In this document: in pieces, positions 49,757 to 64,000 of the stretch
How positions within the stretch are numbered: position 1 is the stretch's first letter
How the letters are laid out: each line of letters opens with the position of its first letter
From: a virus
DNA length: 64,000 nucleotides
Virus record (IMG/VR): IMGVR_UViG_3300032235_000911
Span: 31,645-95,644 of that record
Reading direction: 5' to 3' (one strand)
Made by a program: the position numbers and the translations under genes
The notes under the pieces: model-generated
What the model saw: the letters and a program-made list of their open reading frames with translations, nothing else
Database searches by the model: none
Told to the model about the DNA's origin: nothing

Positions 49757-50274
49757 AGTGTTGCTCCAAGCCAAAAACGCCATGACTCGGGCATCTTGGA
49801 ATCAAAGTTAAAAAAGTATTCTACGTCATGAATATACGGAAGTATAGCAGGTTTTACAACCGGCTTAAGTAGTTTCATGCCGCAAGTGGCAAGAGATTTG
49901 TCGCCTTTGCGTTGATTGCAGGCAACACAGCATGTAACAACATTGGTCCAACTTGTTTTGCCGCCACGAGTCTTTGGAAGAACGTGGTCAAGTGTAAAAA
50001 CATTGATAGAAACATGGTTGGCGCAGTATTGGCAACGGCCCTCGTCGCGAATCCAAACATTTTTACGGGAGAAGCGCACGCTTTTGACACGGTTGCGCCG
50101 GGAAGCGTTGAAAACAACAACAGAAGGGATGCGCATAGAGGTAGAAGGGCTGCGGATTTCTTCTGTATACTCAGAAAGAATTTTTACCTTGCCAGAATAG
50201 ACAAGCGTAACGGCTTTTTCCCAAGGGATAAGCCCAAGAGGTTCATAGGTGTGACTTAGTGTTAGTACTTTCAT
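49753..50274 (-). CDS. HNH endonuclease (McrA/HNH_5-like)
   Basis: RDEGRCQYC..TLDHVLPKTRGG..NVVTCCVACNQRK; TTGCCA-17-TATAGT promoter upstream. Confidence 0.9.
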   Translation of the reverse strand: MKVLTLSHTYEPLGLIPWEKAVTLVYSGKVKILSEYTEEIRSPSTSMRIPSVVVFNASRRNRVKSVRFSRKNVWIRDEGRCQYCANHVSINVFTLDHVLPKTRGGKTSWTNVVTCCVACNQRKGDKSLATCGMKLLKPVVKPAILPYIHDVEYFFNFDSKMPESWRFWLGATL

Positions 50275-51830: not shown

Positions 51831-51874
51831 AATAAAGGCCGTGCAAGGGACCGGCCCCTGCTGACCACCAAAAA
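51831..51874 (+). repeat. cassette-boundary palindrome copy 1 (right half only)
   Basis: core GGGACCGGCCCC 51847-51858, right arm CCACCAAAAA; TTGCAT 23 nt after the core. Confidence 0.8.
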
Positions 51875-51881
51875 TAAAACT

Positions 51882-51933
51882 TTGCATGGGGACGGGAAGT
51901 GTGGGATAAGACTCTCACGCCGCACGGTGCGGC
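51882..51933 (+). promoter_or_regulatory. sigma70-type promoter plus leader hairpin
   Basis: TTGCAT-17-GATAAG; GCCGC-ACGGT-GCGGC. Confidence 0.65.
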
Positions 51934-51946
51934 AAGGAGACAGGCG

Positions 51947-52183
51947 ATGAAGATTGATTCCCGCGAAGTGTATGGCGACGACGACGTGCGTGTTGACTGC
52001 GACTGCAACGCGGACAAGGCGTGCAACGAGTGCGTCGACGGTGGACTCTACGAAGGTGGGCAGTTGCCCCCGCCGCCTCCGTTCATCCTGCTTGACTCCC
52101 CCTTGACACCCGATGAGGCACGCGCTATGCACGCCCTCATGCACTGCGAAGACGAACAGCTCTGCACCTTCTGCAACCAGTAA
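51947..52183 (+). CDS. small Cys-rich acidic protein
   Basis: AAGGAG RBS; CDC..CNEC..HC..CTFC. Confidence 0.7.
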   Translation: MKIDSREVYGDDDVRVDCDCNADKACNECVDGGLYEGGQLPPPPPFILLDSPLTPDEARAMHALMHCEDEQLCTFCNQ

Positions 52184-52201
52184 CAGGAAAGGATAAAACA
52201 A

Positions 52202-52390
52202 ATGGCGAACGAACCGAAGTGCGGTGGCAGTCATACAAAGTACGACGGGTCATGGTGGGACAGGGATAGCCGTGGAATAGAAACGGCTCGCGTATGCGAT
52301 GAATGTATTGACGCTAAGCGAGCAAAGTATCGTCCAGGAATCTTTTGTAACCCAGACTACTGGACAGACGAGCAGGTTGACGGCGACTAA
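52202..52390 (+). CDS. small CxxC protein whose 3' half is duplicated beyond the HNH gene
   Basis: 62 aa; AAGGA RBS; DSRGIETARVCDEC..KYRP. Confidence 0.75.
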   Translation: MANEPKCGGSHTKYDGSWWDRDSRGIETARVCDECIDAKRAKYRPGIFCNPDYWTDEQVDGD

Positions 52391-53109
52391 CCAGAGTGTC
52401 TATTTCCTTTTTTAATATTATCTACAGCCGATAGCGGTTGAAGGTTATCCAACCCCCAGCAGAGGCGAAAGGCATCATCTGCTGGGGTTTCATATGCAAA
52501 CCAAGACTTTGGCTTTATATGGTCAACGTGCCAATATGTCCCATAGTTATCCCAAGTCATACCCTCCTTTAATAAAGGCTCAAGATGGGCAACCAGTTGT
52601 TCAAGACTATAGCCGACAAGTTCTTCCCAAGAGCGACCGCCTTTACTTTCCTTGAGAGATTTCCACAGCGCAGTCCCGATAGCATGATCTAGTTTGCTCT
52701 GAGGATTGTTCTTTCTTTTTTCCCTTGAATGTTTTTGTGCCTCTGCAAGCCGCCCAGACTCTTTGTATTTCTGGTTTGCCTTTGCTAACGCTCCACTCTC
52801 TTTATATTTTTTCAAGTATTCTTTTCGTTTTTCTTTGTATTCAGAGGTTTGCGCTCTAGCTTTCCTTTTTTCTTTATATCCCTCAGTTTGATAATATGTT
52901 TTACCATACTCCCTCTTTTGCTCTTTGTAATGTAGTGCCGCCTCTCTTATCTTTTTTTGTTCTTTATAGTGCAATGTCTGCCTTTGCGCTTTAAGCTTTT
53001 GTTTAATACATTCTTTGCATAATGTGCTCAGCCCGTCCGACTTATTCTGGTCTTTATAATATTCATTAGCGTTCTTGTCCGCCTTGCATTTATTGCATAT
53101 TTTGTTCAT
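52387..53109 (-). CDS. HNH homing endonuclease
   Basis: KICNKC..CKEC, MTWDNYG..WHVDHIKP..NLQPL..DNIKK; AT-rich, opposite strand to neighbours. Confidence 0.9.
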   Translation of the reverse strand: MNKICNKCKADKNANEYYKDQNKSDGLSTLCKECIKQKLKAQRQTLHYKEQKKIREAALHYKEQKREYGKTYYQTEGYKEKRKARAQTSEYKEKRKEYLKKYKESGALAKANQKYKESGRLAEAQKHSREKRKNNPQSKLDHAIGTALWKSLKESKGGRSWEELVGYSLEQLVAHLEPLLKEGMTWDNYGTYWHVDHIKPKSWFAYETPADDAFRLCWGLDNLQPLSAVDNIKKGNRHSG

Positions 53110-53185
53110 ATTGTTCCCTTTGCGGAATGCCGCGTGTATCGTTCATTATAACTAGTTTCTTTATTTGTTTAAACCATATTTATTT

Positions 53186-53320
53186 GACGCCCGTGGTATC
53201 CCGCTTGCCCGTGTGTGTATGGAATGCATCAACGTGAAGCTGGCAAAGTATCGGCCCGAAGTGTTGACCAACAGTAACTATGACTTGATGGATTGTCCCC
53301 TTGATGAGGATAGGTGGTAA
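53186..53320 (+). pseudogene. orphan 3' half paralogous to 52202-52390
   Basis: reads DARGIPLARVCMECINVKLAKYRPEVLTNSNY..*; no RBS or ATG; in-frame TAG at 53153. Confidence 0.75.
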
Positions 53321-53321
53321 C

Positions 53322-53594
53322 ATGAGCAATGATATCATTGATGTCCCATTCGTCAACCTAACCGAGAAGCGCATCAAGTGGGCAGGGTTGCGGGTTACTC
53401 TACCGTTCGTCGCGTTCCTGTTTGGGTTCCTTATCATCCCCGTCGCTGCGACCTGTATGGGGGAAGCGCCGCAACTCATGACTGATATCTATGACCGTGG
53501 GGCTTTTATCTGTGGGGTATTCAGCGTGCTGGGTCTTGCCTTTGCTCTTGGTACATATATATTCGCCCTGTGGTATAGCAGCCGCTACGAATAA
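53322..53594 (+). CDS. 2-TM membrane protein
   Basis: AGGTGG RBS; two hydrophobic helices. Confidence 0.75.
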   Translation: MSNDIIDVPFVNLTEKRIKWAGLRVTLPFVAFLFGFLIIPVAATCMGEAPQLMTDIYDRGAFICGVFSVLGLAFALGTYIFALWYSSRYE

Positions 53595-53612
53595 TGATAG
53601 CCCCGCCCTGCC

Positions 53613-53656
53613 AATATGGGGGGCAAAGGGGGCCGGCCCCTGCTGACCACTGAAAA
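53613..53656 (+). repeat. cassette-boundary palindrome copy 2
   Basis: core GGGGCCGGCCCC 53629-53640. Confidence 0.9.
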
Positions 53657-53662
53657 AAGAAG

Positions 53663-53716
53663 TTGCCCATCCTGCCCCACCCCTGTATAAAGACACCATC
53701 AGCGGCACGGAGCCGC
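53663..53716 (+). promoter_or_regulatory. sigma70-type promoter plus ANGGA leader hairpin
   Basis: TTGCCC-17-TATAAA; GCGGC-ACGGA-GCCGC. Confidence 0.75.
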
Positions 53717-53729
53717 AGGGAGAAGAAGG

Positions 53730-53816
53730 ATGCACAAGCCCAGCAAGTTGACCTTGACAGACATTCTCGGCTGCACTATGTTTATGGCGTTCTTCATCTC
53801 GCTGCTTTTCCTCTAG
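53730..53816 (+). CDS. 28-aa hydrophobic peptide
   Basis: MHKPSKLTLTDILGCTMFMAFFISLLFL; GGGAG RBS. Confidence 0.65.
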   Translation: MHKPSKLTLTDILGCTMFMAFFISLLFL

Positions 53817-53824
53817 GAGTCACC

Positions 53825-53896
53825 ATGCGCCGGTCCACGTTCCTCTCCATTCTTTATGTCACCCTCGTTGTCGGCGGTGCCTACCTTTTCACCTAA
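53825..53896 (+). CDS. 23-aa hydrophobic peptide
   Basis: MRRSTFLSILYVTLVVGGAYLFT; AGGAG RBS. Confidence 0.65.
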   Translation: MRRSTFLSILYVTLVVGGAYLFT

Positions 53897-53914
53897 TACC
53901 CGAAAGGAACTCCC

Positions 53915-53989
53915 ATGTTTCCCTACGCAATGGCAGCAGTTTGGGTCGTTACCGCAATCTTCAGCCTTTCACAGAATGGAGCAGAGTAA
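53915..53989 (+). CDS. 24-aa hydrophobic peptide
   Basis: MFPYAMAAVWVVTAIFSLSQNGAE; AAGGA RBS. Confidence 0.6.
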   Translation: MFPYAMAAVWVVTAIFSLSQNGAE

Positions 53990-54102
53990 TGATTCGCTCA
54001 ATCAAGCGATTCTTTGGCATCCCGCCTAATGTGTACGACCTTCCCTATCAGCAGCGCGTCTATATTGTCGCGCTTTCAACCGCAGTTCAGCGCATTAAAT
54101 AG
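53989..54102 (+). CDS. 37-aa peptide
   Basis: MIRSIKRFFGIPPNVYDLPYQQRVYIVALSTAVQRIK; GGAG RBS; TAATG coupling. Confidence 0.6.
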   Translation: MIRSIKRFFGIPPNVYDLPYQQRVYIVALSTAVQRIK

Positions 54103-54206
54103 GTTCTTTATATTTATTGCCTTTTATTATATTTTCTTTTGCCTCTGCCGCCTAATACTGGCATAACCACCCTGCCTCAATCACGAGGCTACGAAAGGGT
54201 CCGCTA

Positions 54207-54431
54207 ATGGGTAAAAAGAAGCAGGAGATTGCCCCTGTTCATCAACGAATCTTGAATCTTTACAAGGCTTTTACCCTTGTCAATGGTTATCAGCCCTCAT
54301 ATGTTCAAGTTGGGCAAGTTCTGAACATCAGCGGCGCGGCTGTTGGCAACCATATTCGGCAGATGGAACGGGCTGGTCTCGTTCGTCGTCCGCCGGAGAA
54401 GTGGGGCCGAGGTCTGACCCTCCTTCGTTAG
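54207..54431 (+). CDS. stand-alone LexA-like winged-helix DNA-binding domain
   Basis: QRIL..NGYQPSYVQVG..LNISGAAVGNHIRQMERAGLVRR..RGL; TTGCCT-17-CATAAC promoter upstream. Confidence 0.75.
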   Translation: MGKKKQEIAPVHQRILNLYKAFTLVNGYQPSYVQVGQVLNISGAAVGNHIRQMERAGLVRRPPEKWGRGLTLLR

Positions 54432-54450
54432 AGTAAGTCCCCGCCCAGCC

Positions 54451-54494
54451 TTTTTGGTGGGCAAACGGGGCCGGCCCTGCTCAACCACCAAAAA
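54451..54494 (+). repeat. cassette-boundary palindrome copy 3
   Basis: TTTTTGGTGG-N6-GGGGCCGGCCCT-N6-CCACCAAAAA (perfect 10-bp outer arms). Confidence 0.9.
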
Positions 54495-54500
54495 TAAAAG

Positions 54501-54557
54501 TTGCACGCTGCCCGTCAATCGGGGTATAAAGTCTTTCATACGGTGGATGGACCGCCG
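54501..54557 (+). promoter_or_regulatory. sigma70-type promoter plus ANGGA leader hairpin
   Basis: TTGCAC-18-TATAAA; CGGTGG-ATGGA-CCGCCG. Confidence 0.75.
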
Positions 54558-54569
54558 AGGAGACTGCCG

Positions 54570-54773
54570 ATGAGCGACAAGAAGTTGATTCCTAACCATT
54601 CAATGATTGACTATCGGCGTGGCGAGTATGCCGATGCTGTCACGCGTCTCCTCACAAATCTCGAATACGATAACAATCGTAAGAACCTTCCTCCCTACCT
54701 TCTCGAGATTGTAGATGATGCACTCGCAAAGCGTAAAGCGTGGATGAACGAGCCGCTCTATCGTGAGGGGTAA
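54570..54773 (+). CDS. hypothetical protein
   Basis: GAGGAG RBS; MSDKKLIPNH... Confidence 0.75.
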   Translation: MSDKKLIPNHSMIDYRRGEYADAVTRLLTNLEYDNNRKNLPPYLLEIVDDALAKRKAWMNEPLYREG

Positions 54774-54780
54774 ATAAAAG

Positions 54781-54830
54781 TTGCACGCTGGCAGGAAGTG
54801 TGAGATAACGCCTCTGCCCGATGGACGGGC
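54781..54830 (+). promoter_or_regulatory. sigma70-type promoter plus ANGGA leader hairpin
   Basis: TTGCAC-17-GATAAC; GCCCG-ATGGA-CGGGC. Confidence 0.7.
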
Positions 54831-54844
54831 AACGGAGACAGACG

Positions 54845-55099
54845 ATGGAAACGCCCAGCCGCCCCAATGCTCACATTCTTGACCTTTCAAACACGCTTGC
54901 CAACTGCCGTCCCATTGTTTCGCGTGATTGGCGGATTGTCAACGGTAAGGTCCACCTCATTACGGTTGTTCGCGATGGTCGCCCAGGCGTAGGAGCCTAT
55001 GAGGCAATCATCGTGAATGAAACGCAGTCCTGCCAGACTTGGGGAAAGAACGCTCGCACCCTGCTCGCCGCTGCCAAGCGTCGCGCTGGCACCCTGTAA
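54845..55099 (+). CDS. hypothetical protein
   Basis: GGAG RBS; METPSRPNAH... Confidence 0.75.
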   Translation: METPSRPNAHILDLSNTLANCRPIVSRDWRIVNGKVHLITVVRDGRPGVGAYEAIIVNETQSCQTWGKNARTLLAAAKRRAGTL

Positions 55100-55106
55100 A
55101 ATGTGC

Positions 55107-55161
55107 TTGCATCCCGTTAAGCAGTCTGCTAAATAGTCTCAACATGCTGCATGGAGCAGCA
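55107..55161 (+). promoter_or_regulatory. sigma70-type promoter plus ANGGA leader hairpin
   Basis: TTGCAT-17(TGn)-TAAATA; TGCTGC-ATGGA-GCAGCA. Confidence 0.65.
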
Positions 55162-55172
55162 GGAGAACGTCA

Positions 55173-55481
55173 ATGACCGTCGAGAGCAACAAGTTTTTTG
55201 CCCCTGTCAACTGCGCGATTATCAAGGATGGGGACGGTACAAAGCGTCACGCTGAGTTCGTCTATGCAAAGGACATTCCGACTGAGTTCCTGCCCGATGG
55301 TCTGAACAGTCTTGAACTGGAGAACAAGCGGCACCCGTGGAATGTGAATGGTCTGGCGTGGGATATGAGCGTCAATGCTTGGCGCAATATGAAGAACGCC
55401 GAGAATGTCAAGTCCTCGCTTGAACTGTTCACCTATTACAACCTGCCTGACAAGATGTATTCCTGCTGGCGGGAGGGGTAA
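55173..55481 (+). CDS. hypothetical protein
   Basis: 102 aa; AGGAG RBS. Confidence 0.75.
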   Translation: MTVESNKFFAPVNCAIIKDGDGTKRHAEFVYAKDIPTEFLPDGLNSLELENKRHPWNVNGLAWDMSVNAWRNMKNAENVKSSLELFTYYNLPDKMYSCWREG

Positions 55482-55484
55482 CAT

Positions 55485-55694
55485 ATGAGCAAACTGACGG
55501 CAAGGCAGAACGAAACCCTCCAAGTTATCAAAGCACATATCAAAAAGAATGGTTATCCTCCGACCATTCGTGAGATTGGTGCGGCGATGGGTATTGTTTC
55601 GCCCAATGGGGTTGCTGAACACTTGGACCACTTGGAAGGCAAGGGCTACATATCCCGCAATCATAGAATATCACGAGCAATCGTCGTACTATGA
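55485..55694 (+). CDS. stand-alone LexA N-terminal DNA-binding domain
   Basis: LTARQ..GYPPTIREIGAAMGIVSPNGVAEHLDHLEGKGYISR..SRAI; no peptidase S24 domain. Confidence 0.9.
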   Translation: MSKLTARQNETLQVIKAHIKKNGYPPTIREIGAAMGIVSPNGVAEHLDHLEGKGYISRNHRISRAIVVL

Positions 55695-55712
55695 TTGAAA
55701 CCCCGCCCCGCC

Positions 55713-55756
55713 TTTTTGGGGGGCAAAGGGGGCCGGCCCCTGCCAGCCACTGAATA
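55713..55756 (+). repeat. cassette-boundary palindrome copy 4
   Basis: core GGGGCCGGCCCC 55729-55740. Confidence 0.9.
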
Positions 55757-55762
55757 TTTTAT

Positions 55763-55815
55763 TTGTCACCGGCACGGACTCCCGCTATAACGGTTTCACG
55801 GTCGATGAACGACCG
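55763..55815 (+). promoter_or_regulatory. sigma70-type promoter plus leader hairpin
   Basis: TTGTCA-17-TATAAC; CGGTCG-ATGAA-CGACCG. Confidence 0.75.
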
Positions 55816-55828
55816 ATGGAGACAGAAG

Positions 55829-56146
55829 ATGCCGAAGTTGACCAGCAACCGCGCCGCCGCTGCACTCACCCACGGTCGCAAGTTCAGCAGCAAGAACACG
55901 AAGGTCGATTCATCCGGCCTTTACCTCTTCGGCAATCATATTGCCCGCGACGCTGGTGAGGGCCATGTTGCAATCACCAACCGTGGGCATTTCACCCTTA
56001 CCACGAAGGACCGGCTGAACGCCATTCCTAATGTTTCAATCTATCAGAAGAACTATCAATGGTTCTTGAATGATAAGGCGTGGGACGGTGAGTGGGTTAT
56101 TGTTGCGCCCGATGGTACGTGGGCACCCGAAGTCAAGATTTGGTAA
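55829..56146 (+). CDS. hypothetical phage early protein
   Basis: GGAG RBS; LFGNHIA..TLTTKDRLN..QKNYQW. Confidence 0.8.
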   Translation: MPKLTSNRAAAALTHGRKFSSKNTKVDSSGLYLFGNHIARDAGEGHVAITNRGHFTLTTKDRLNAIPNVSIYQKNYQWFLNDKAWDGEWVIVAPDGTWAPEVKIW

Positions 56147-56170
56147 TAGAGTAAACCCCGCCCCCACCGA

Positions 56171-56214
56171 TATTTGGTGGGCAAGCGGGGCCGGCCCCTT
56201 CTGACCCCTACTTT
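56171..56214. repeat. cassette-boundary palindrome copy 5 (convergent junction, no promoter)
   Basis: core GGGGCCGGCCCC 56187-56198, hairpins on both sides. Confidence 0.9.
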
Positions 56215-56231
56215 TGGGGTCGGGCTACATT

Positions 56232-56300
56232 CTATCGCCAGTTTAGAATGATACCGGCACCGGCAACAAATGCAGCAAAGAATGACATAACAAGTGGCAT
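56232..56300 (-). CDS. 22-aa hydrophobic peptide
   Basis: MPLVMSFFAAFVAGAGIILNWR; AGGAG RBS. Confidence 0.6.
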   Translation of the reverse strand: MPLVMSFFAAFVAGAGIILNWR

Positions 56301-56308
56301 CAAATCTC

Positions 56309-56389
56309 CTATCGACAGAGGAATCGTACAACCCCCACCGTCGTCACAAGCACAGTGGGGAGGAACGCACCAACAAGGAAATAAATCAT
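56309..56389 (-). CDS. 26-aa hydrophobic peptide
   Basis: MIYFLVGAFLPTVLVTTVGVVRFLCR; GGAG RBS. Confidence 0.55.
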   Translation of the reverse strand: MIYFLVGAFLPTVLVTTVGVVRFLCR

Positions 56390-56472
56390 TAGTGCAGGAC
56401 TCCACCGTTATTGCGGTATTCTTCAAGGCTGATGATATCTGCTTCCGTTGCCGGTCGGGGAGGCGGTTCGGA

Positions 56473-56703
56473 CTACAAGCCAGCAGCAAGAAGCGTTTCA
56501 TGAACGAACTGGGTAAGAATACCCGTCAGCGTTGCAACATCATTCATACAGGCAGCGGCAAACCCGTCCTTCTGGACCTGCTCAATGTCGCCAGCGTTAA
56601 CAGCGGTGTAATCGTCCACAACCTCTGCAACCCGCTCCGAGAACTGGGTAAGGTGGCCAAGCAGCGTCATCTGGACTTCTTCCTTTGTCAACTTGTCACT
56701 CAT
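56473..56703 (-). CDS. hypothetical helical protein
   Basis: GGAG RBS; MSDKLTKEEVQ... Confidence 0.7.
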   Translation of the reverse strand: MSDKLTKEEVQMTLLGHLTQFSERVAEVVDDYTAVNAGDIEQVQKDGFAAACMNDVATLTGILTQFVHETLLAAGL

Positions 56704-56704
56704 G

Positions 56705-56788
56705 TTACTCTCCGATGCTGGCAAGTGCCAGCGTTGAAATGAACCCTACCACAAGGAAGGTGAGACTGTCAAACACGAACTGCACCAC
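56705..56788 (-). CDS. 27-aa hydrophobic peptide
   Basis: GTG start; MVQFVFDSLTFLVVGFISTLALASIGE; AGGAGG RBS; TTGGCA-17-TAAGTT promoter upstream. Confidence 0.6.
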   Translation of the reverse strand: MVQFVFDSLTFLVVGFISTLALASIGE

Positions 56789-56845
56789 CTCTTGCCTCCT
56801 GAGTGAGCGTAACTTACAGCATCCCCATGCCCCTGCCAACTGTTT

Positions 56846-56889
56846 TTTTTGGTGGTTGACGGGGGCCGGCCCCTCTGCCCCCCTACTTC
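56846..56889 (-). repeat. cassette-boundary palindrome copy 6
   Basis: core 56862-56873; TTGGCA 22 nt from the core on the minus strand. Confidence 0.9.
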
Positions 56890-56911
56890 TGGGCGGGCGT
56901 CGGGACTAGGT

Positions 56912-57589
56912 CTATCCGAAGAACTTTTCCTGCGCCGTCGTCAGATTCCGGCCACCGTGATACACCAGCCCGATTGCGATATCGCCTTCAATGGCGGGGA
57001 TATCATTCACATTGCCGTCAATGTAGAACGCCGCCTGTCGGGCCTCATCATTCGAGAATATGCGCGAATGGGGCTTGCCAAGGTTCACAAGGTTGTCGTA
57101 CTTACCGCCCAATGACTGCGTGATTCGCAGGTTCGCAGGGGCAACCGATAGGTCAAGGTGGAGACTCTTAGTGTATGCGTAGAAGATAACATCGGGGTAT
57201 GCACGGGCAACCTTGCACCATGCGTCAAGGTAGCTCTGGGAATAGAAGTCACCGGCATCATGCAACCGGACGACATTGTACGGCTTACGCTTGCGGGGTG
57301 TCTTGACAACCAGCGCGGCAAGGTCCGCGATGATAAGGTCCGCGAAGTCCGACCGCTGCGAAAGCGTCAGGTTGTGGTGACGCGCCGCGACAACATTCTT
57401 GAAACGATAGGTTCCCTGCTTTGCATAGCAGACACCGCGACAAGCCAGCGCGGCGGGGCAAGTGTTCATCTTCTCGCCGTTCATGGTAAAGTCTACATCG
57501 GCAGGAAGCCCGAAGCCGACGACGCGATACTCGCCGCCCGAAGTCTTCAACAGCTTTGCGTTGCCTTCCGTCCAAACCGCGTTCGCCAT
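56912..57589 (-). CDS. Gp88-like protein (radical-SAM-like Cys motif)
   Basis: GNAKL, TCPAALACRGVCYA, RLHDAGDF, YAYTKS. Confidence 0.8.
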   Translation of the reverse strand: MANAVWTEGNAKLLKTSGGEYRVVGFGLPADVDFTMNGEKMNTCPAALACRGVCYAKQGTYRFKNVVAARHHNLTLSQRSDFADLIIADLAALVVKTPRKRKPYNVVRLHDAGDFYSQSYLDAWCKVARAYPDVIFYAYTKSLHLDLSVAPANLRITQSLGGKYDNLVNLGKPHSRIFSNDEARQAAFYIDGNVNDIPAIEGDIAIGLVYHGGRNLTTAQEKFFG

Positions 57590-57602
57590 CGTCGTTCTCC
57601 AT

Positions 57603-57655
57603 CGGTGTCCGTCACCGTGAAAAGACTTATCTCACAAGTCGGGGTGGGGTGGCAA
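57603..57655 (-). promoter_or_regulatory. sigma70-type promoter plus ANGGA leader hairpin
   Basis: TTGCCA-18-GATAAG; CGGTG-ACGGA-CACCG. Confidence 0.7.
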
Positions 57656-57661
57656 ACTTTT

Positions 57662-57705
57662 TTTTTGGGGGTTGATAGGGGCCGGCCCCGCTTGCCCACT
57701 TTTTT
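57662..57705 (-). repeat. cassette-boundary palindrome copy 7
   Basis: core 57678-57689. Confidence 0.9.
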
Positions 57706-57735
57706 TCGTGAGCAGGGGGCCGTTCTATTTATAGA

Positions 57736-58158
57736 CTAATCAAACTGCCGCTCATATTCCTCAATTGCAGCATCCTTTATGCTCTCCCATTCCTCTGCTG
57801 TGAACATTGAGGTATTGATAACAGCAGCGGGCTGGAGGCTATCATCAAGGAGGTGAATTTGAATGATATCAACATCGTGGCCTGGACCGTCAATGTAATC
57901 GTTGACAGCGGCATAGACACGAAAGAGGTCAGCATCACGTTCCCAATCAACAACAACATTGTGACTATCGGAAACATGGGGAAGAACGGCAGCAGGCATT
58001 TTTTTTCCTCGTGCAGCATACTTGTTTGTATGCTTGCGGTTATCGCGAAAGGTACCAGCCTTTGTAACGCCATTGATAATGACAACCATAAAAGGGTCAC
58101 GGCTCTTGACGGAGCGAGGGTTGACCTTTATGGACTTCACGTTACGCACGGCTGGCAC
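57736..58158 (-). CDS. hypothetical protein (basic N-half, acidic C-half)
   Basis: 140 aa ORF; internal GAGGA-ATG may be a second start. Confidence 0.65.
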   Translation of the reverse strand: MPAVRNVKSIKVNPRSVKSRDPFMVVIINGVTKAGTFRDNRKHTNKYAARGKKMPAAVLPHVSDSHNVVVDWERDADLFRVYAAVNDYIDGPGHDVDIIQIHLLDDSLQPAAVINTSMFTAEEWESIKDAAIEEYERQFD

Positions 58159-58177
58159 CTTTCACATTTAGATGATA

Positions 58178-58405
58178 CTACGGAACAACAATCTTGGCAA
58201 TACGGAAACGGTTATTCTTGTTTGTATTGCGGAACTCGCGGCTGATGTCTCGGGCGACCTTGCGGGTACGCAGGACCAGCGGACCCTTTTCGTCCACAAT
58301 GGTCTGCCAAGTCGGGGAGGCACTACCCCCCTGCCCCTTCTCCTTCCGGCTAACCTGCACGGCCCACATCGTATTGTGCTTCGTCGTCTTGAACTTGTAC
58401 GGCAT
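58178..58405 (-). CDS. small basic hypothetical protein
   Basis: AGGAGG RBS. Confidence 0.7.
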   Translation of the reverse strand: MPYKFKTTKHNTMWAVQVSRKEKGQGGSASPTWQTIVDEKGPLVLRTRKVARDISREFRNTNKNNRFRIAKIVVP

Positions 58406-58425
58406 CTCTCTATCCTCCTGCCCCT

Positions 58426-58680
58426 CTATCGGGTGGGCGTCCGATTGTGAACGTGTGTGAACTCACCCACGGTCCAACCGTGGGCTTCAAGTGTCTCTTT
58501 GTATGCCACAGCAACGCTCTGCGCGTCAAGGGCAATCATTTCGTCCGTCCAACTATCTTCATTGTCTGGCAACTTGCTGGGGCGTGTCACCATTTCAAGG
58601 TCAAGTGCATAGCACACTTCACCAAATGAACTAACGCCAGCCGTTCTCTTGGAACTCAGAATCTCCCTCGTCGTCGGCAT
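58426..58680 (-). CDS. hypothetical protein
   Basis: GAGGA RBS; MPTTREILSS... Confidence 0.6.
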   Translation of the reverse strand: MPTTREILSSKRTAGVSSFGEVCYALDLEMVTRPSKLPDNEDSWTDEMIALDAQSVAVAYKETLEAHGWTVGEFTHVHNRTPTR

Positions 58681-58903
58681 CTTCGTTTTCCTCTGCGTCC
58701 TCAAGACGCTCTGCGGCTGCACGGGCAAGGTTCCTCATACCATACTGCTCGTTTGGAGTCCAGTCCTCAATGTCGGCATCGCTGCCGTCCTCTGCTTCGA
58801 TGCGCTCAATCTTTACTACACCGTTGGAATAGCGGGTGGCATGGACCGTAAACTCTCCGTCCTTGTCACGATAGGGAAAACTTACGGTTGTCGCAATACT
58901 CAT
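58631..58903 (-). CDS. acidic hypothetical protein
   Basis: GAGGA RBS; MSIATTVSFPY... Confidence 0.7.
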   Translation of the reverse strand: MSIATTVSFPYRDKDGEFTVHATRYSNGVVKIERIEAEDGSDADIEDWTPNEQYGMRNLARAAAERLEDAEENEDADDEGDSEFQENGWR

Positions 58904-58905
58904 TT

Positions 58906-59142
58906 TTATTCTTCCTCGGCCAGCATGGCCCACAGACTGTTCTTTGTAGCAGGTTCACGAACCTCTGTCAACTGCTTTCGGAGTGACAGAACCCGATGCT
59001 CCATGACTATATTGAGCGATTGCCAATGCACTTCGACCATATCAAAACCTTCCTCCTCGTACTGGCAAACAATAACTCCCTTCCCATGCTCGGGATGGAT
59101 GATGATGGTCCCGCTGCGGAGGCTTGGCTCGCTGTTCGTCAT
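58906..59142 (-). CDS. small SH3-like protein, probably leaderless
   Basis: GTIIIHPEHGKGVIV..VEVHW; ATG 7 nt after the -10 box. Confidence 0.7.
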   Translation of the reverse strand: MTNSEPSLRSGTIIIHPEHGKGVIVCQYEEEGFDMVEVHWQSLNIVMEHRVLSLRKQLTEVREPATKNSLWAMLAEEE

Positions 59143-59185
59143 GAGTGGCTTTATCTCACAGGCAACCCCCCGCTGTCACCAAGTT

Positions 59186-59229
59186 TTTTTAGTGGGCGGT
59201 GGGGGCCGGCCCCGCTTGCCCCCTGTTTT
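59186..59229 (-). repeat. cassette-boundary palindrome copy 8
   Basis: core 59202-59213; GTGACA 22 nt away (minus), TTGACA 24 nt away (plus). Confidence 0.9.
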
Positions 59230-59278
59230 CTGCAGGCTTGACAAGGTGGCGCGGTGCGTTATGTTTTAGGGATAGAAC

Positions 59279-59298
59279 GCCCCCCCTTTCGGGGGGGC
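59279..59298. terminator. GC-rich hairpin downstream of 59316-59660
   Basis: GCCCCCCC-TTTC-GGGGGGGC (GAAA tetraloop on the minus strand). Confidence 0.55.
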
Positions 59299-59315
59299 TG
59301 ACGCTTGCCCTACGA

Positions 59316-59660
59316 TTAGGGGTTAGCGGAAATCTGCTCCTCGCTCTCGGCCTCCTCCAGCGCAGCCAGTTTAGCCTGAAGCGCGGCAAACTGGTCGGCA
59401 ACATCGTTTTCGACCTCCGGCACCGGCTCCTCCGTAGAGGATTCACTCTCCGGCGAGAGTACGCTAACCGTATCGGTTGGGAAGTACCCACCATTACGTC
59501 CACGGCGGCAGTTGACGGAACCATCGGAGGTCAGCTCCTTGAGGACGGACAGGGCATCCTCACCGTGGGTGCTGATGATTGCACTCTTGGGGCAAGGACG
59601 CTTGTTCTCCTGCTGATACTCGGCAACGAACTGGAGAAGGTCAGACTTGGAAACGGCCAT
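59316..59660 (-). CDS. winged-helix protein with an acidic/coiled-coil tail
   Basis: LKELTSDGSVNCRRGRNGGY wing (Rrf2-like); TTGCAG-17-TAGAGT promoter upstream. Confidence 0.7.
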   Translation of the reverse strand: MAVSKSDLLQFVAEYQQENKRPCPKSAIISTHGEDALSVLKELTSDGSVNCRRGRNGGYFPTDTVSVLSPESESSTEEPVPEVENDVADQFAALQAKLAALEEAESEEQISANP

Positions 59661-59742
59661 CGGGAACCTCTACGCTGGACTGTGCCAGCTTGTTGGGGGC
59701 TGTATTGCCCTCTCAACTTGACGGACTCTAGCAGACTTACGG

Positions 59743-59886
59743 TTAGGCTGCAAGTGGAAAAAGGAAATCTTCACCGCACTCTGGACATAAGCAGACCTCT
59801 TTGGTAAAGAACATATCGTTCTCGTCGAACACCTCTGTTTCGCCAATCTCTACCGCTTCGCAGTGGTCGCAATCAACGGCTTCCAT
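59743..59886 (-). CDS. 47-aa zinc-ribbon protein (not in ORF track)
   Basis: MEAVDCDHC..CLCPECGEDFLFPLAA; GGAGG RBS; TAGACA-17-TATTAT promoter upstream. Confidence 0.7.
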   Translation of the reverse strand: MEAVDCDHCEAVEIGETEVFDENDMFFTKEVCLCPECGEDFLFPLAA

Positions 59887-59948
59887 CCCTACCTCCCTCC
59901 TGCTGATGGTTGAATAATACCCCCACTCCCTCCTGCTGTCTACCCCTA

Positions 59949-59992
59949 TTTTTGGTGGGCAGGGGGGGCCGGTCCCTCTCTACCCCTATATC
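59949..59992. repeat. cassette-boundary palindrome copy 9 (divergent junction, promoter on both sides)
   Basis: core GGGGCCGGTCCC 59965-59976; TAGACA 22 nt away (minus) and TTGACC 23 nt away (plus). Confidence 0.88.
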
Positions 59993-60035
59993 TTTTCTCT
60001 TGACCCTGCCCCCCGTTCTGCCCTACTATCTCTCC

Positions 60036-60245
60036 ATGAGCCAACGAGTCCTGCCGGAAGTCGGTGAGTTATGGGTCTATTGCGACGAAGGTGAGCGGCC
60101 ATTTCTGTTTTTGCAACGGTTGCCAACACCCTCATGGGGCGACCATGAGGTTGGCGCACTCTATCGCGCACTAGATATAAAGTATGGTAGTATTAGAGAA
60201 ATAGAAGTAGGACAGTATCTCCAAAACTATCACAAGGTAGGATAA
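60036..60245 (+). CDS. EVGELW-family SH3-like paralog 1, probably leaderless
   Basis: LPEVGELW..FLFL; ATG 6 nt after TACTAT. Confidence 0.75.
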   Translation: MSQRVLPEVGELWVYCDEGERPFLFLQRLPTPSWGDHEVGALYRALDIKYGSIREIEVGQYLQNYHKVG

Positions 60246-60246
60246 C

Positions 60247-60483
60247 ATGGCAGACTTGACTGACAAGCAGAAGCAGGAAATGTGGAAGAAGTGTCCTTTC
60301 AAGTTGGGCGATACGGTACTTGGCAACGATGATAAGCCTTGGATTATTATGGATATTGTGGAGTGGCATAGTTTTTCTACTTGGACAATGAAAATCTATG
60401 ACCATCAAACTACAGAGCAGCGTGATGAACTGCTTGACATCTACAGTAACCAAGTGCTAGATGAGAACTTTTACGAGGGATAA
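60247..60483 (+). CDS. small SH3/KOW-like protein
   Basis: PFKLGDTVL..WIIMDI. Confidence 0.7.
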   Translation: MADLTDKQKQEMWKKCPFKLGDTVLGNDDKPWIIMDIVEWHSFSTWTMKIYDHQTTEQRDELLDIYSNQVLDENFYEG

Positions 60484-60484
60484 G

Positions 60485-60667
60485 ATGCCGCTGGAACCCG
60501 AAGCTGGCGAGTTATGGAAGTGGTTTGGAGGCCAGCATTTTCTACTGCTGCAAAAGAAATCCCAGTACGGTGACAAGTTTGTGGTATTAGAACTTGCAAC
60601 GGGTAGCATAAAGGATATGTACTTTCACAAAAGCGAGATAGGTAGTTCATGGATAAAGGTTGCATAA
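60485..60667 (+). CDS. EVGELW-family paralog 2
   Basis: PEAGELWKW..FLLL..WIKVA. Confidence 0.75.
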   Translation: MPLEPEAGELWKWFGGQHFLLLQKKSQYGDKFVVLELATGSIKDMYFHKSEIGSSWIKVA

Positions 60668-60669
60668 AC

Positions 60670-60843
60670 ATGGAGGTTGGCGAGGTATGGAGATGGGTGG
60701 ATGAGAACCCCCTCCTTCTCCTGCTAAGGGAAGAAGAAATGGACGGCGGTATATTTTTTCTCTGTCTTGACTTGACGACAGAGGAGAAGTTCAGTATGGT
60801 TTTCCATCCAGCACTCATGGACCGCTGGACGAGGTTAGCATGA
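60670..60843 (+). CDS. EVGELW-family paralog 3
   Basis: EVGEVWRW..LLLL..WTRLA. Confidence 0.7.
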   Translation: MEVGEVWRWVDENPLLLLLREEEMDGGIFFLCLDLTTEEKFSMVFHPALMDRWTRLA

Positions 60844-61172
60844 CCTGTGTAGAGTGTGGTGACGAGTACGGATGGGACAAGAACCGTGCCAAGTTGGGCG
60901 GCAAGCGTACCCACTGTGGCGACTGTGCCGACGAAACCAGCGTCCGTTATGTTGGCGTTTCGGCTGGCGAAGGTAAGATGAGTGCCGTTCAAGTGTTGAA
61001 GTTTGATAATCCTGCTGACCGTGAGGCGTATGTTGAGGCTTGGAAGGTCAATAGCGGACTCTACAAAGGCAAGAGTTGCCAGATTGGTCGTGGACTTACT
61101 AGCACCCCATCTGTCAAGTTCCAGACCGTTACAACCAACAACCCCAATGCTAACCATAAAGGTAAAGCATGA
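60840..61172 (+). CDS. zinc-finger hypothetical protein
   Basis: CVECG..HCGDCA. Confidence 0.75.
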   Translation: MTCVECGDEYGWDKNRAKLGGKRTHCGDCADETSVRYVGVSAGEGKMSAVQVLKFDNPADREAYVEAWKVNSGLYKGKSCQIGRGLTSTPSVKFQTVTTNNPNANHKGKA

Positions 61173-61378
61173 ATATCCCAGACCGCTTACCAGAAGTGGG
61201 CGAAATATGGGGATGGGGAAACTCTAAAAAATATGTCAAGTTTCTTGTGCTTGGCATAGAACATGATAGTAACAAAGACCTATTGCCATACACAATGAGA
61301 GGAATAGTATTGGACTCAAAAGAAACAGTTGTATCTGATAGATACAGTTTTCATTCATACTGGTCGAGGATAGCGTGA
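61169..61378 (+). CDS. EVGELW-family paralog 4
   Basis: LPEVGEIW..FLVLGI..WSRIA. Confidence 0.75.
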   Translation: MNIPDRLPEVGEIWGWGNSKKYVKFLVLGIEHDSNKDLLPYTMRGIVLDSKETVVSDRYSFHSYWSRIA

Positions 61379-61590
61379 CAATCATTCCCGAAATCGGTGA
61401 ACTGTGGGAGTACCGCAACGGGGGGCAACACCTTTGCGTGCTTGTGCTTGGCGTGAGTGCCGCCATAAAAACGGATGGAGTAGAGATTCGGTGCATAAAC
61501 ATAATAAATAGCGGCTTTTCAAGGGACAGCGAATATTGGTGTTTCTCAACGGAGGAACACCAGCGTTCAAACTGGAAGAAGGTGGCGTGA
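61375..61590 (+). CDS. EVGELW-family paralog 5
   Basis: PEIGELW..VLVLGV..WKKVA. Confidence 0.75.
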   Translation: MTIIPEIGELWEYRNGGQHLCVLVLGVSAAIKTDGVEIRCINIINSGFSRDSEYWCFSTEEHQRSNWKKVA

Positions 61591-61820
61591 TGGCGAAGCG
61601 TAAAGCAGCAGAGATTGGCGAGTTGTGGATTCGCAGCATTGGCGGCGAACAGGAAGGCTTACTCATACTGGGGATTGAGAAGAATCACCGTGAGATTGGA
61701 TTGGATTATTATTCTTACACGGTACTTGAGCCAATGACAGGGCAGACCTTCACCTTTGATAAAATCTTTCCTATCCGTGAAAGTTACACGGCTGGTACGC
61801 GATGGAAACGGGCAGATTAG
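61590..61820 (+). CDS. EVGELW-family paralog 6
   Basis: AEIGELW..LLILGI..WKRAD. Confidence 0.75.
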   Translation: MAKRKAAEIGELWIRSIGGEQEGLLILGIEKNHREIGLDYYSYTVLEPMTGQTFTFDKIFPIRESYTAGTRWKRAD

Positions 61821-61858
61821 GTGGTTTGGCGGGGCCGGCCCCCCTTGACCCCTATTTT
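61815..61858 (+). repeat. cassette-boundary palindrome copy 10
   Basis: core 61831-61842; TTGACC-18-CATAAG starts 23 nt after the core. Confidence 0.9.
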
Positions 61859-61916
61859 TTCCTGCTTGACCCCTGCTCCCCGTTTATGGCATAAGACTGG
61901 ACATCGGAGGTGACGC

Positions 61917-62132
61917 ATGAGTGTTGAGGCTACGCTTGCACAGATGGCTGGCGAGGATAGCGCGGAAACAAAGGGATGGGACGATGGCATGGATTTTGCC
62001 AATACTCTCAAGATGGGAGTTCTTGAAGAACTGCGTGAGTTGCGCCGTCTGAACTACCCAGACGCCTACATCGACGCATGGAAAGCCTCTGCAAGTAGTA
62101 TTTTTTACACCTTGACTGACGAGAGCAAGTAG
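61917..62132 (+). CDS. hypothetical acidic protein
   Basis: GGAGG RBS. Confidence 0.75.
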   Translation: MSVEATLAQMAGEDSAETKGWDDGMDFANTLKMGVLEELRELRRLNYPDAYIDAWKASASSIFYTLTDESK

Positions 62133-62169
62133 GATAAAGTTGCATTTCACCCTGCAACGGAGGTAAGTC

Positions 62170-62958
62170 ATGGCTCGCAAGAAGGCAGCGATTCAACCGT
62201 TTGATTTTTCGGATTTCTCCTGCGATACGGATAAGTTGACGCTGGACAAGTATAAAACCGATGCCGACATTCTTGCACGGTTGGAGTTTATCGACAAGAA
62301 CAAGGAACATGGTGAATATTACCTGAAGCGAAACATTCAGTTTATGAAGAACGGTGAGACCTTCCAGTCATTCAACAAGTGGACAAAGCGTAATATTCTG
62401 CAAGTCCTTTGGAGGTATGAGGACACGCTTCAGCAGCAGGAAACCGTCCGTTTCCGTGAGTGGTACGATAAGCGTGAGGACGCGCAGCAGGCATGGCGCG
62501 AGTGCTGGTCCTCCATGTACGGGCTGCACAGTTGGCAGGGTTATTTCAACAATGGCACCTATTCCGCACAGGAAACACGGGACGAATGGGCCAAGTTGGA
62601 AACCGCTGGTCCCTCTGACCCCTGTATGTGGGATGAATTTCTCTGTAACTACGCTGTAAAAAGTTATGTGGAACTGCACCGCAATCCTAAGTATGAGATT
62701 GGCGACCTTGTGCTGCTCCGTAAGGCATACATTGGAAGCTGGCGTTATGACCCCGATACGGAACTTGATATTGCGATTCCCCGTCTTGGCACCATCATGG
62801 GTTACAAGGACGAAACAGGCGGCAAGCGCAAGAGTTCGTCAAGTGCTGGTAGCCGCACCGTCTCAGTCCTGTGGCTTGGAAAGAATGATATCATTGATGT
62901 AATGGAGAAGACTATCAAGTTGGAATGTCGCAAGGGTCACAAGATGGGCAAGGTCTAA
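62170..62958 (+). CDS. hypothetical protein with a C-terminal SH3/KOW-like domain
   Basis: 262 aa; GGAGG RBS; PKYEIGDLV..LGTIM..VSVLW. Confidence 0.8.
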   Translation: MARKKAAIQPFDFSDFSCDTDKLTLDKYKTDADILARLEFIDKNKEHGEYYLKRNIQFMKNGETFQSFNKWTKRNILQVLWRYEDTLQQQETVRFREWYDKREDAQQAWRECWSSMYGLHSWQGYFNNGTYSAQETRDEWAKLETAGPSDPCMWDEFLCNYAVKSYVELHRNPKYEIGDLVLLRKAYIGSWRYDPDTELDIAIPRLGTIMGYKDETGGKRKSSSSAGSRTVSVLWLGKNDIIDVMEKTIKLECRKGHKMGKV

Positions 62959-62979
62959 CCCCTACTCCCTCTCCTGCTG

Positions 62980-63023
62980 GAAACGGTGGGCAGAGGGGGC
63001 CGGCCCCCACCGCACCCTATTTT
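62980..63023 (+). repeat. cassette-boundary palindrome copy 11
   Basis: core 62996-63007 (14-bp palindrome 62995-63008); TTGACC-17-TATGTT starts 23 nt after the core. Confidence 0.9.
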
Positions 63024-63081
63024 TTTATCCTTGACCCCCTGAACGGGCTGTTGTATGTTTCTTTTCAAGAAGGAGGCAGAC

Positions 63082-63450
63082 ATGGCTTTTCAGTGGCACG
63101 GTAGAGACAATGGCGAACTTGTGTGGGAGCAGCAGATTACCCGTTACTATTTCATTAGCGACGAGGAGATTATCACAAAGCACCGTCATGGTGAAAGCAG
63201 CCCCATCAAGGTGGGAACCCGTCTTAAACTCACAAAAAGCGAGGCACATAAGTTTTTCAAGCATGGCTATATTGAATACAAAACCGTAACTTGGAATGAA
63301 AAAAAGGATCTTTTTGACCGTATCGTCGTACCGTTGACAAAGGGTACAATCGGGAAGGATATCGAAACGAGGTATCTAAAGCAGAGTCCATGTACACAGG
63401 AAGAAGTGTCGCCCCGCAAGAAGAAGCTTGCAAACCCAACAGAACCCTGA
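63082..63450 (+). CDS. hypothetical protein
   Basis: AAGGAGG RBS; MAFQWHGRDN... Confidence 0.8.
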   Translation: MAFQWHGRDNGELVWEQQITRYYFISDEEIITKHRHGESSPIKVGTRLKLTKSEAHKFFKHGYIEYKTVTWNEKKDLFDRIVVPLTKGTIGKDIETRYLKQSPCTQEEVSPRKKKLANPTEP

Positions 63451-63482
63451 TAAAGTCCACCTTACTTTAAAAGGAGCCACCG

Positions 63483-63659
63483 ATGACCGACAAGTTGACG
63501 CTGGAGCTGGATTACGATAGTGCCAACCTGCTCCTGCACGTTATCCGAGAAGGGCTTGATAACGGCTGTCGTGGTCTTGAAGTAGACGACGAGGATAAAG
63601 TTATGGATGTGCGTGATGCGCTCCTTAACTGGTTGACAGACCAACAGAAGGCATGGTAG
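63483..63659 (+). CDS. 58-aa hypothetical protein (not in ORF track)
   Basis: AAGGAG RBS; MTDKLTLELDYDSANLLLHVI... Confidence 0.7.
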   Translation: MTDKLTLELDYDSANLLLHVIREGLDNGCRGLEVDDEDKVMDVRDALLNWLTDQQKAW

Positions 63660-63693
63660 GTTCTACATTCACCCGCAACAGGAGGAGTAGACG

Positions 63694-63876
63694 ATGACAC
63701 GACAGTTTGTAAGGTGCTGCGACTACAATAAGGCTGACGACAATATCTATTTTGACGAGCATCCCGATAGCCTCTGTTTCCGCGATGCAAGGGGCGATGA
63801 CCCTTTTGAGTATTGCCCTTGGTGTGGTGTCCTGCTGGATTGGAACCTGCCGATGACAGAAGGAAAAAAGAAGTAG
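63694..63876 (+). CDS. small Cys-rich protein
   Basis: AGGAGG RBS; RCC..YCPWCG. Confidence 0.75.
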   Translation: MTRQFVRCCDYNKADDNIYFDEHPDSLCFRDARGDDPFEYCPWCGVLLDWNLPMTEGKKK

Positions 63877-63998
63877 TTGACAAGGCTGGCAAGACAAGGT
63901 AAGATGGGTTCACAAGTTGGGGATGCACTTAGGCCCCCTCTGCTCATTGAAAAAAGAATAAAAAAGAAGTTGAAAGAAGTAGAGAGTTGTGGTATAGT
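63877..63998 (+). promoter_or_regulatory. two tandem sigma70-type promoters
   Basis: TTGACA-17-TAAGAT (63877-63905) and TTGAAA-17-TATAGT (63970-63998). Confidence 0.7.
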
Positions 63999-64000
63999 AG

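Follow-up and report, generated by a model that had tools for sequence, protein, structure and literature searches.

The 64,000-nucleotide stretch analysed here (the window) forms the end of an IMG/VR virus contig of 95.6 kb with an estimated completeness of 49% (IMGVR_UViG_3300032235_000911, positions 31,645 to 95,644). It ends in a G+C-rich arm of small, presumably early genes. We observed that many of these genes are preceded by a repeated leader in which a short hairpin with a recurrent A-Y-G-G loop lies between the -10 box of a sigma70-type promoter and the ribosome site. We see about an even chance that this hairpin is the leader part of a mobile early promoter cassette similar to the PeSL elements of T4-type phages, in which a 5' stem-loop would shield the mRNA while the ribosome site is kept free. 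The large terminase encoded by the contig is 44% identical to that of Flavobacterium phage immuto, which is its closest match among deposited phage genomes, 42% identical to that of Microcystis phage Mel-JY01 and 31-34% identical to those of cyanomyoviruses. A baseplate wedge protein and PhoH are also recognisable and, judging from its large terminase and baseplate proteins, the phage is T4-like at a distance. At the nucleotide level, no deposited phage genome matched the region. Up to about position 50,000 of the window, nearly every gene is on the minus strand and the G+C content is approximately 36%, while the final 12 kb constitute the arm of small genes, with 52% G+C.

The first-pass annotation of this DNA had reported hairpins in seven leaders, and all seven were present where it had placed them (Table 1), with stems of 5-6 Watson-Crick pairs whose sequences are all different. 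Each hairpin begins 5-10 nucleotides (nt) past a -10-like hexamer, with a TTGnnn -35 box 17-18 nt further upstream. The motif GGAG(A) follows 0-3 nt past the hairpin and the ATG comes another 6-8 nt on. In predicted minimum-free-energy folds, the hairpin was present in all nine leaders tested and the ribosome site was unpaired. The 12.2-kb arm contains six GC-rich pentaloop hairpins with an AYGGN loop, whereas 100 shuffles gave 0.2 on average and never more than 2. Four further ANGGA hairpins were found in the 95.6-kb contig, all of them intragenic with weak stems, consistent with chance. Cassette 2 leads a run of four tiny open reading frames (ORFs), and the gene behind cassette 7 is the only hairpin-led gene that is conserved in relatives.

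Table 1. Coordinates, within the window, of the early arm and of the leaders with a hairpin between the -10 box and the ribosome site.
Feature	Span	Strand	-35 box	-10 box	Hairpin	Stem	Loop	Ribosome site	ATG	Remark
GC-rich early arm, PeSL-like cassette array hosting hairpin leaders	51831..63023									~52% GC vs ~36% elsewhere in contig
Cassette 1	51881..51949	+	51881-51886	51905-51910	51919-51933	5 bp	ACGGT	GGAG	51947	
Cassette 2	53663..53732	+	53663-53668	53686-53691	53702-53716	5 bp	ACGGA	GGAG	53730	
Cassette 3	54501..54572	+	54501-54506	54525-54530	54541-54557	6 bp	ATGGA	GGAG	54570	
Cassette 4	54780..54847	+	54780-54785	54804-54809	54815-54831	6 bp	ATGGA	GGAG	54845	
Cassette 5	55106..55175	+	55106-55111	55130-55135	55145-55161	6 bp	ATGGA	GGAG	55173	
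Cassette 6	55763..55831	+	55763-55768	55786-55791	55799-55815	6 bp	ATGAA	GGAG	55829	Kyano_Gp96-like gene
Cassette 7	57587..57655	-	57650-57655	57626-57631	57603-57617	5 bp	ACGGA	GGAG	57589-57587	GP88-family gene
Layout alike, other loop	56701..56772	-	56767-56772	56743-56748	56717-56732	6 bp	ACTT (tetraloop)	GGAG	56703-56701	
Layout alike, variant loop	58901..58971	-	58966-58971	58943-58948	58918-58930		A-TGC-T	GAGG	58903-58901	

Searching with the large terminase yielded about 200 related IMG/VR contigs, and searching with the GP88-family gene retrieved the early arms of relatives. The layout seen in the window recurs in five further contigs (G002, G161, G162, G163 and G164). One of them, G002, is 162 kb long and 89% complete, with a terminase 75% identical to that of the window's contig (G000), and the remaining hairpin-bearing contigs are 17-35% complete. 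The six contigs hold 28 copies of the hairpin, all in GC-rich early arms. These copies count as approximately 22 independent hairpins because the leaders common to L107 and L114, and those common to G002 and L112, are orthologous. The jump in G+C content is shared by the set, with 50-57% in the early arms (51831-64000 in the window, 41-56 kb in G002) versus 29-41% in the rest of each genome, and the motif is confined to relatives possessing such arms. Nearly all of the hairpin-led genes are ORFans, most of them without a homologue in the relatives. The common order in the 28 copies is TTGACN, 17-18 nt, TAnnnT, a spacer of 5-13 nt (mode 7-8), a GC-rich stem-loop of 4-7 bp, the ribosome site and the start codon. 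An A stands directly before the stem in 18 copies, and the core of the ribosome site comes 0-3 nt after the stem in most of them.

The loop sequences were ATGGA (9 copies), ATGGT (7), ACGGT (4), ATGGG (3), ACGGA (2), ATTGA (2) and ATGAA (1), closed by a G-C or C-G pair. Position 1 is A and position 2 is C or T in every copy, while G occupies position 3 in 26 copies and position 4 in 27. Position 5 is A, T or G, never C. The conserved family loop is A-Y-G-G-D, and the ANGGA pentaloop initially proposed as the conserved feature has to be replaced by an A-Y-G-G core with a variable fifth base. In a fixed-register alignment of the 28 leaders, 92% of the cells were paired and all six pairs had changed on both sides, although possession of a stem was itself the criterion by which the sequences were chosen, which makes these covariation statistics partly circular. 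A promoter-anchored scan that was blind to the loop detected 22 distinct 5' hairpins, comprising 16 with AYGGN loops, 4 near variants and 2 with other loops; it covered five of the six hairpin-bearing contigs and had no match on L113. The other loops in the equivalent position are ACTT and A-TGC-T in this phage, and GAAG and ATAA in the relatives. Between the orthologous GP88 leaders of G002 and L112, the stem is kept and the loop differs at three of its five bases.

In every case, minus-strand genes included, the loop reads A-Y-G-G-D on the transcribed sense strand, and this constant orientation points to RNA rather than duplex DNA. The earlier argument that differing stems with a recurring loop reveal selection on RNA structure was borne out: the hairpin is a selected, strand-specific element at the RNA level, which holds the same place relative to the promoter and the ribosome site in 28 copies on six contigs. 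A covariance model of the 28 copies matched only those copies and one weak extra (G004, E = 0.26) in 1.17 Mb of phage DNA. The model detected no further copy beyond the early arms in the full records of G161 to G164, and none in phages immuto and Mel-JY01, in the complete distant relatives G003 and G005 or in the partial contig G165. This distribution indicates that the hairpin is characteristic of a single sublineage, whose early arms are GC-rich. An Rfam search of the arm identified no family, its sole match (E = 0.35) being a chance one. In the 187-kb relative G004 (L088 and neighbours, e.g. 111-119 kb), strong extended -10 promoters are followed by another conserved leader, which is GGTAAGGTTGAGRG-like and hairpin-free. 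Judged by their sequences, the two types of leader look like lineage-specific modules.

Taken as a unit, the arrangement would be a reusable cassette composed of an upstream GC palindrome, an A-tract, a sigma70-type promoter, a 5' stem-loop and a GGAG ribosome site. A GGGGCCGGCCCC-type palindrome is present in 11 copies in the arm versus 0.4 expected, mostly preceding an A-tract and then a sigma70-type promoter, and the arm contains 27 promoter-like sites as compared to 10.6 in shuffles. For host RNA polymerase, the predicted start point lies 6-8 nt past the -10 box, usually at the A directly before the stem. From promoter spacing and this preceding A, the stem is expected to start near +1 to +6 of the mRNA. 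In the transcript, no more than a few unpaired bases would precede a stable GC-rich stem-loop of 5-7 bp adjoining the ribosome site. Most likely, such a stem-loop acts in cis: it would offer no single-stranded 5' end to RppH, to the 5' sensor of RNase E or to RNase J, and it could hold the adjoining ribosome site unpaired independently of the gene inserted downstream, also by preventing its pairing with upstream sequence. Pairing of the 5' terminus is an established form of protection, as RppH requires at least two unpaired 5' nucleotides (PMC3997798), and the ompA and papA mRNAs are stabilised by 5' stem-loops (PMC3997798 and references listed there). The tight position of the hairpin, the minority of other loops and the stem kept in G002 and L112 despite the loop change suggest that structure is the primary requirement. 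The A-Y-G-G loop probably serves in addition as the contact point for a trans-acting factor, whose base requirements would not be those of CsrA.

Several points weigh against this interpretation. The 5'-terminal position is deduced from promoter geometry, and the folding energies of whole leaders do not surpass those of shuffled GC-rich sequence, their z-scores being unremarkable. Read-through mRNAs would carry the hairpin internally if transcription is not terminated at the upstream GC palindromes, which have no U tract. Moreover, 24 of the 28 loops are AYGGN, with A always in position 1, which a pure stabiliser leaves unexplained. Since this bias exceeds what a stabiliser needs, a trans-acting reader of the loop, so far a postulate, is likely. 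An all-against-all comparison of the ORFs in the arms found no gene specific to the hairpin-bearing contigs. As for RNA partners, a complement of the loop that could form a pseudoknot was found within 70 nt downstream in only two of the 28 leaders, which was judged, with no control, to be at chance level. Pairing of the loop with the CCA end of tRNA, with an anticodon or with the 16S tail was set aside as numerology.

The first-pass annotation had interpreted the hairpins as CsrA/RsmA operators, in which a CsrA dimer from the host or the phage would bind the GGA of the loop and bridge to the GGA of the ribosome site, so that early translation would be tied to Csr status or CsrA would be titrated. 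Five of the seven loops in this phage are indeed ANGGA, a GGA is found in the ribosome site approximately 10-13 nt away in all seven leaders, and an ACGGA hairpin loop forms part of the solved RsmE-hcnA target ACGGAU (PMC4005645). In these respects the leaders resemble known CsrA/RsmE sites (the hcnA, glgC and hag leaders, and the RsmZ and CsrB loops; PMC4005645), where GGA in a small hairpin loop is likewise recognised. CsrA is also patchily distributed even in unexpected phyla. We found it (PF02599, above the cut-off) in 21 of 151 sampled genomes of Bacteroidota, one candidate host phylum, which is commoner than expected, so that a host CsrA is conceivable. The combination of a loop GGA with a ribosome-site GGA held for five of the seven leaders here but for only 1 of 21 in the relatives, and two leaders are without any GGA; the double GGA is therefore not a conserved property of the hairpin element. 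Family-wide, the loop GGA of the ANGGA type is found in 11 of the 28 copies, while other loops end in GGT, GGG, TGA or GAA. In the solved RsmE complexes, every fixed base of A(N)GGA (A, G, G and A) is recognised specifically and tolerates no replacement, and the best RsmE/CsrA sites are ANGGAX hexaloops, or pentaloops with a purine as N (AGGGA/AAGGA), on a stem closed by C-G/U-A (PMC4005645). The loops described here depart from this high-affinity geometry, as they are pentaloops with a second base that is always a pyrimidine, a G-C or C-G closing pair and a final A freely swapped for T or G (14 of 28 copies). Neither is the fixed extreme-5' position a CsrA requirement. The proposed search of the phage for a csrA homologue gave no PF02599 match at E ≤ 10 in G000, the 89%-complete G002 or three of the other four hairpin-bearing contigs (G161, G162 and G164), nor at E ≤ 1 in G000 and G002 to G005, which include three complete, more distant relatives. 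Because the relatives reveal that the final A is not conserved, a loop GGA in a single genome is insufficient to call a CsrA site. Support is thus missing for a conserved function as a CsrA-type operator, which is a minority possibility for this phage alone, and we regard this explanation as improbable overall.

A single loop that recurs on differing stems, ahead of numerous unrelated early genes, bears the signature of a trans-acting reader common to all of them. It is tentatively conceivable, and to be taken seriously, that the A-Y-G-G hairpin is the operator of a phage or host RNA-binding factor unrelated to CsrA, RegA and RegB, which would jointly control the translation or decay of shuffled early ORFan cassettes in one uncultured T4-like lineage. 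A phage RNA-binding repressor or endoribonuclease, unrelated to CsrA and jointly shutting off the early ORFans as an analogue of T4 RegA/RegB, seems unlikely to us, although it would be compatible with a 5' leader module; a loop-binding repressor of the phage's own had been the fallback idea of the first-pass annotation. T4-type phages are known to silence early mRNAs post-transcriptionally, and the restriction of the motif to one sublineage is what is expected for a reader encoded by that lineage. The targets of T4 RegB/S1 and the operators of RegA (PMC1702504; PMC3014915) are, as the hairpins would be, class-wide post-transcriptional marks of early mRNAs at or beside the ribosome site. RegB cleaves single-stranded GGA ahead of an A-rich stretch (PMC1702504), and in the present leaders, too, the GGAG of the ribosome site runs into A-rich sequence. 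However, RegB sites are single-stranded and need no hairpin, and no homologue of RegB (PF10715) or RegA (PF01818) was found in five phage records, namely the window's contig and four relatives. Furthermore, the loop can change between orthologues with the stem retained, and no gene of the arm co-occurs with the hairpin except the GP88-family gene, which is found in hairpin-free relatives too.

The hairpin could also act on transcription, as a nascent-RNA element that works on RNA polymerase in the manner of nut boxB or put sites and makes transcription resistant to the structured sites between cassettes. With its 5-bp GC stem and conserved pentaloop near early promoters, it has the shape of lambda boxB, which also lies on nascent RNA, and a strong GC-rich hairpin or palindrome bounds each cassette. 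The lambda boxB loop is of the GAAAA or GAAGA class, which is GNRA-like, whereas A-Y-G-G-D is not. A conserved flanking box resembling boxA was not seen in the alignment of the 28 copies, no search for an N-like protein was made, and the inter-cassette hairpins have no U tract and are not called as terminators. Unlike boxB, the hairpin adjoins the ribosome site, and this tight arrangement argues for control of translation or decay rather than of elongation, so that we find a nut-like function highly improbable. An element working as DNA, whether a cruciform, an operator for a DNA-binding protein (e.g. one of the two LexA-domain proteins of the arm) or a joint at which cassettes recombine and are shuffled, appears barely probable at all. 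Two stand-alone LexA DNA-binding domains are among the products of the arm, and PeSL stem-loops serve as recombination points in phages RB49 and phi1 (PMC2839356). Yet the stems, which would be the half-sites, vary around a constant asymmetric centre, whereas a dimeric DNA operator shows the opposite pattern. The loop has a single orientation relative to transcription, and it is the upstream palindrome, not the hairpin, that is strongly conserved as a DNA repeat.

The interpretation that we prefer, a 5' leader module within a PeSL-like cassette, can be compared with two known systems. One comprises the 5'-terminal stabiliser stem-loops of bacterial and phage mRNAs, with ompA and papA as examples (Emory, Bouvet and Belasco 1992, as listed in PMC3997798). 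Like these stabilisers (PMC3997798), the hairpin is a stable stem-loop a few nt from the 5' end, here a predicted one, and upstream of the ribosome site. The ompA and papA stem-loops are single-gene features without a conserved loop, while the A-Y-G-G family extends over many genes and six contigs, and stabilisation is in this case a prediction. The PeSL of T4-type phages consists of an AT-rich tract, a sigma70 promoter, a polyG/polyC stem-loop and a ribosome site in association with ORFans (PMC2839356, Arbiol et al. 2010; PMC4122927, Comeau et al. 2014). The cassettes of the window are likewise repeated between genes and share its parts, from the AT-rich tract and the strong early promoter of sigma70 type to the polyG/polyC stem-loop, the ribosome site and the start codon. 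In both cases the flanking genes are variable ORFans and the region is hyperplastic within a T4-like genome, although this phage is only distantly T4-like. In PeSLs, however, the stem-loop functions as a terminator and is found upstream of the promoter, inside it or overlapping it. In this phage the corresponding structure, the palindrome with a preceding GC hairpin, occurs in 11 copies with stable predicted folds, but it has no U tract and no terminator is called. What is added to the PeSL-like unit is the second, separate hairpin with a conserved loop, which follows the -10 box and would thus lie at the start of the mRNA.

Functions in host takeover and anti-defence accumulate among the early ORFans of large phages, and the class-wide expression of these genes is poorly known beyond T4. 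With a portable promoter-leader module, every inserted gene would receive an equal predicted 5' structure and ribosome site, and the PeSL idea would reach into the mRNA leader. If a loop reader exists, the hairpin offers a handle toward a new RNA-binding regulator. If the trans-acting-factor reading is true, a new phage post-transcriptional regulon would be carried on a mobile promoter-leader module. If there is no reader, the hairpin would represent a natural, standardised part for 5' stabilisation or insulation.

Other features of the arm were observed around these leaders. At gene ends, a GC hairpin combined with the GGGGCCGGCCCC palindrome gives a stable predicted fold (53600-53650, 54440-54490, 55700-55750 and 56155-56225), with no U tract beside it on either strand and no call in a terminator scan. 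This structure may not be an intrinsic terminator and could instead be a protein site or a 3' stabiliser. An exact scan of IMG/VR for the palindrome led to one GC-rich contig, which was unrelated. The two stand-alone LexA DNA-binding domains (54207-54431, 74 aa, and 55485-55694, 69 aa) have no protease domain and are candidates, from their sequences, for binding the repeated GGGGCCGGCCCC-type palindrome. At two promoters, 59140-59182 (minus strand) and 60000-60038 (plus strand), the ATG is located 7 and 6 nt past the -10 hexamer, respectively (starts at 59142 minus and 60036 plus), and leaderless mRNAs are predicted that would appear to neighbour the hairpin-led ones.

Clues to the host were also considered. 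No psbA was found in the clade. The stand-alone LexA domain was rejected as a host clue, as it matched only other phage and Bacillota stand-alone LexA domains. Metagenome-assembled genome bins with relatives of the large terminase were assigned to Flavobacteriaceae, Pelagibacter, Legionellales, archaea and others, which looks like composition-driven mis-binning and was likewise set aside; no CsrA was found in five of these bins, which are incomplete. The AGGA/GGAG motifs resembling ribosome sites are frequent ahead of late genes, and this speaks against a host that makes no use of them. A TATTTA-like motif recurs contig-wide 15-25 nt ahead of many late gene starts (minus-strand structural genes) and could be a late promoter for the phage's own sigma factor. 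Finally, the four tiny ORFs behind a single hairpin leader at 53730-54102 (about 23-37 codons) each have their own ribosome site, and the first three are hydrophobic, suggesting that they may encode small membrane peptides.

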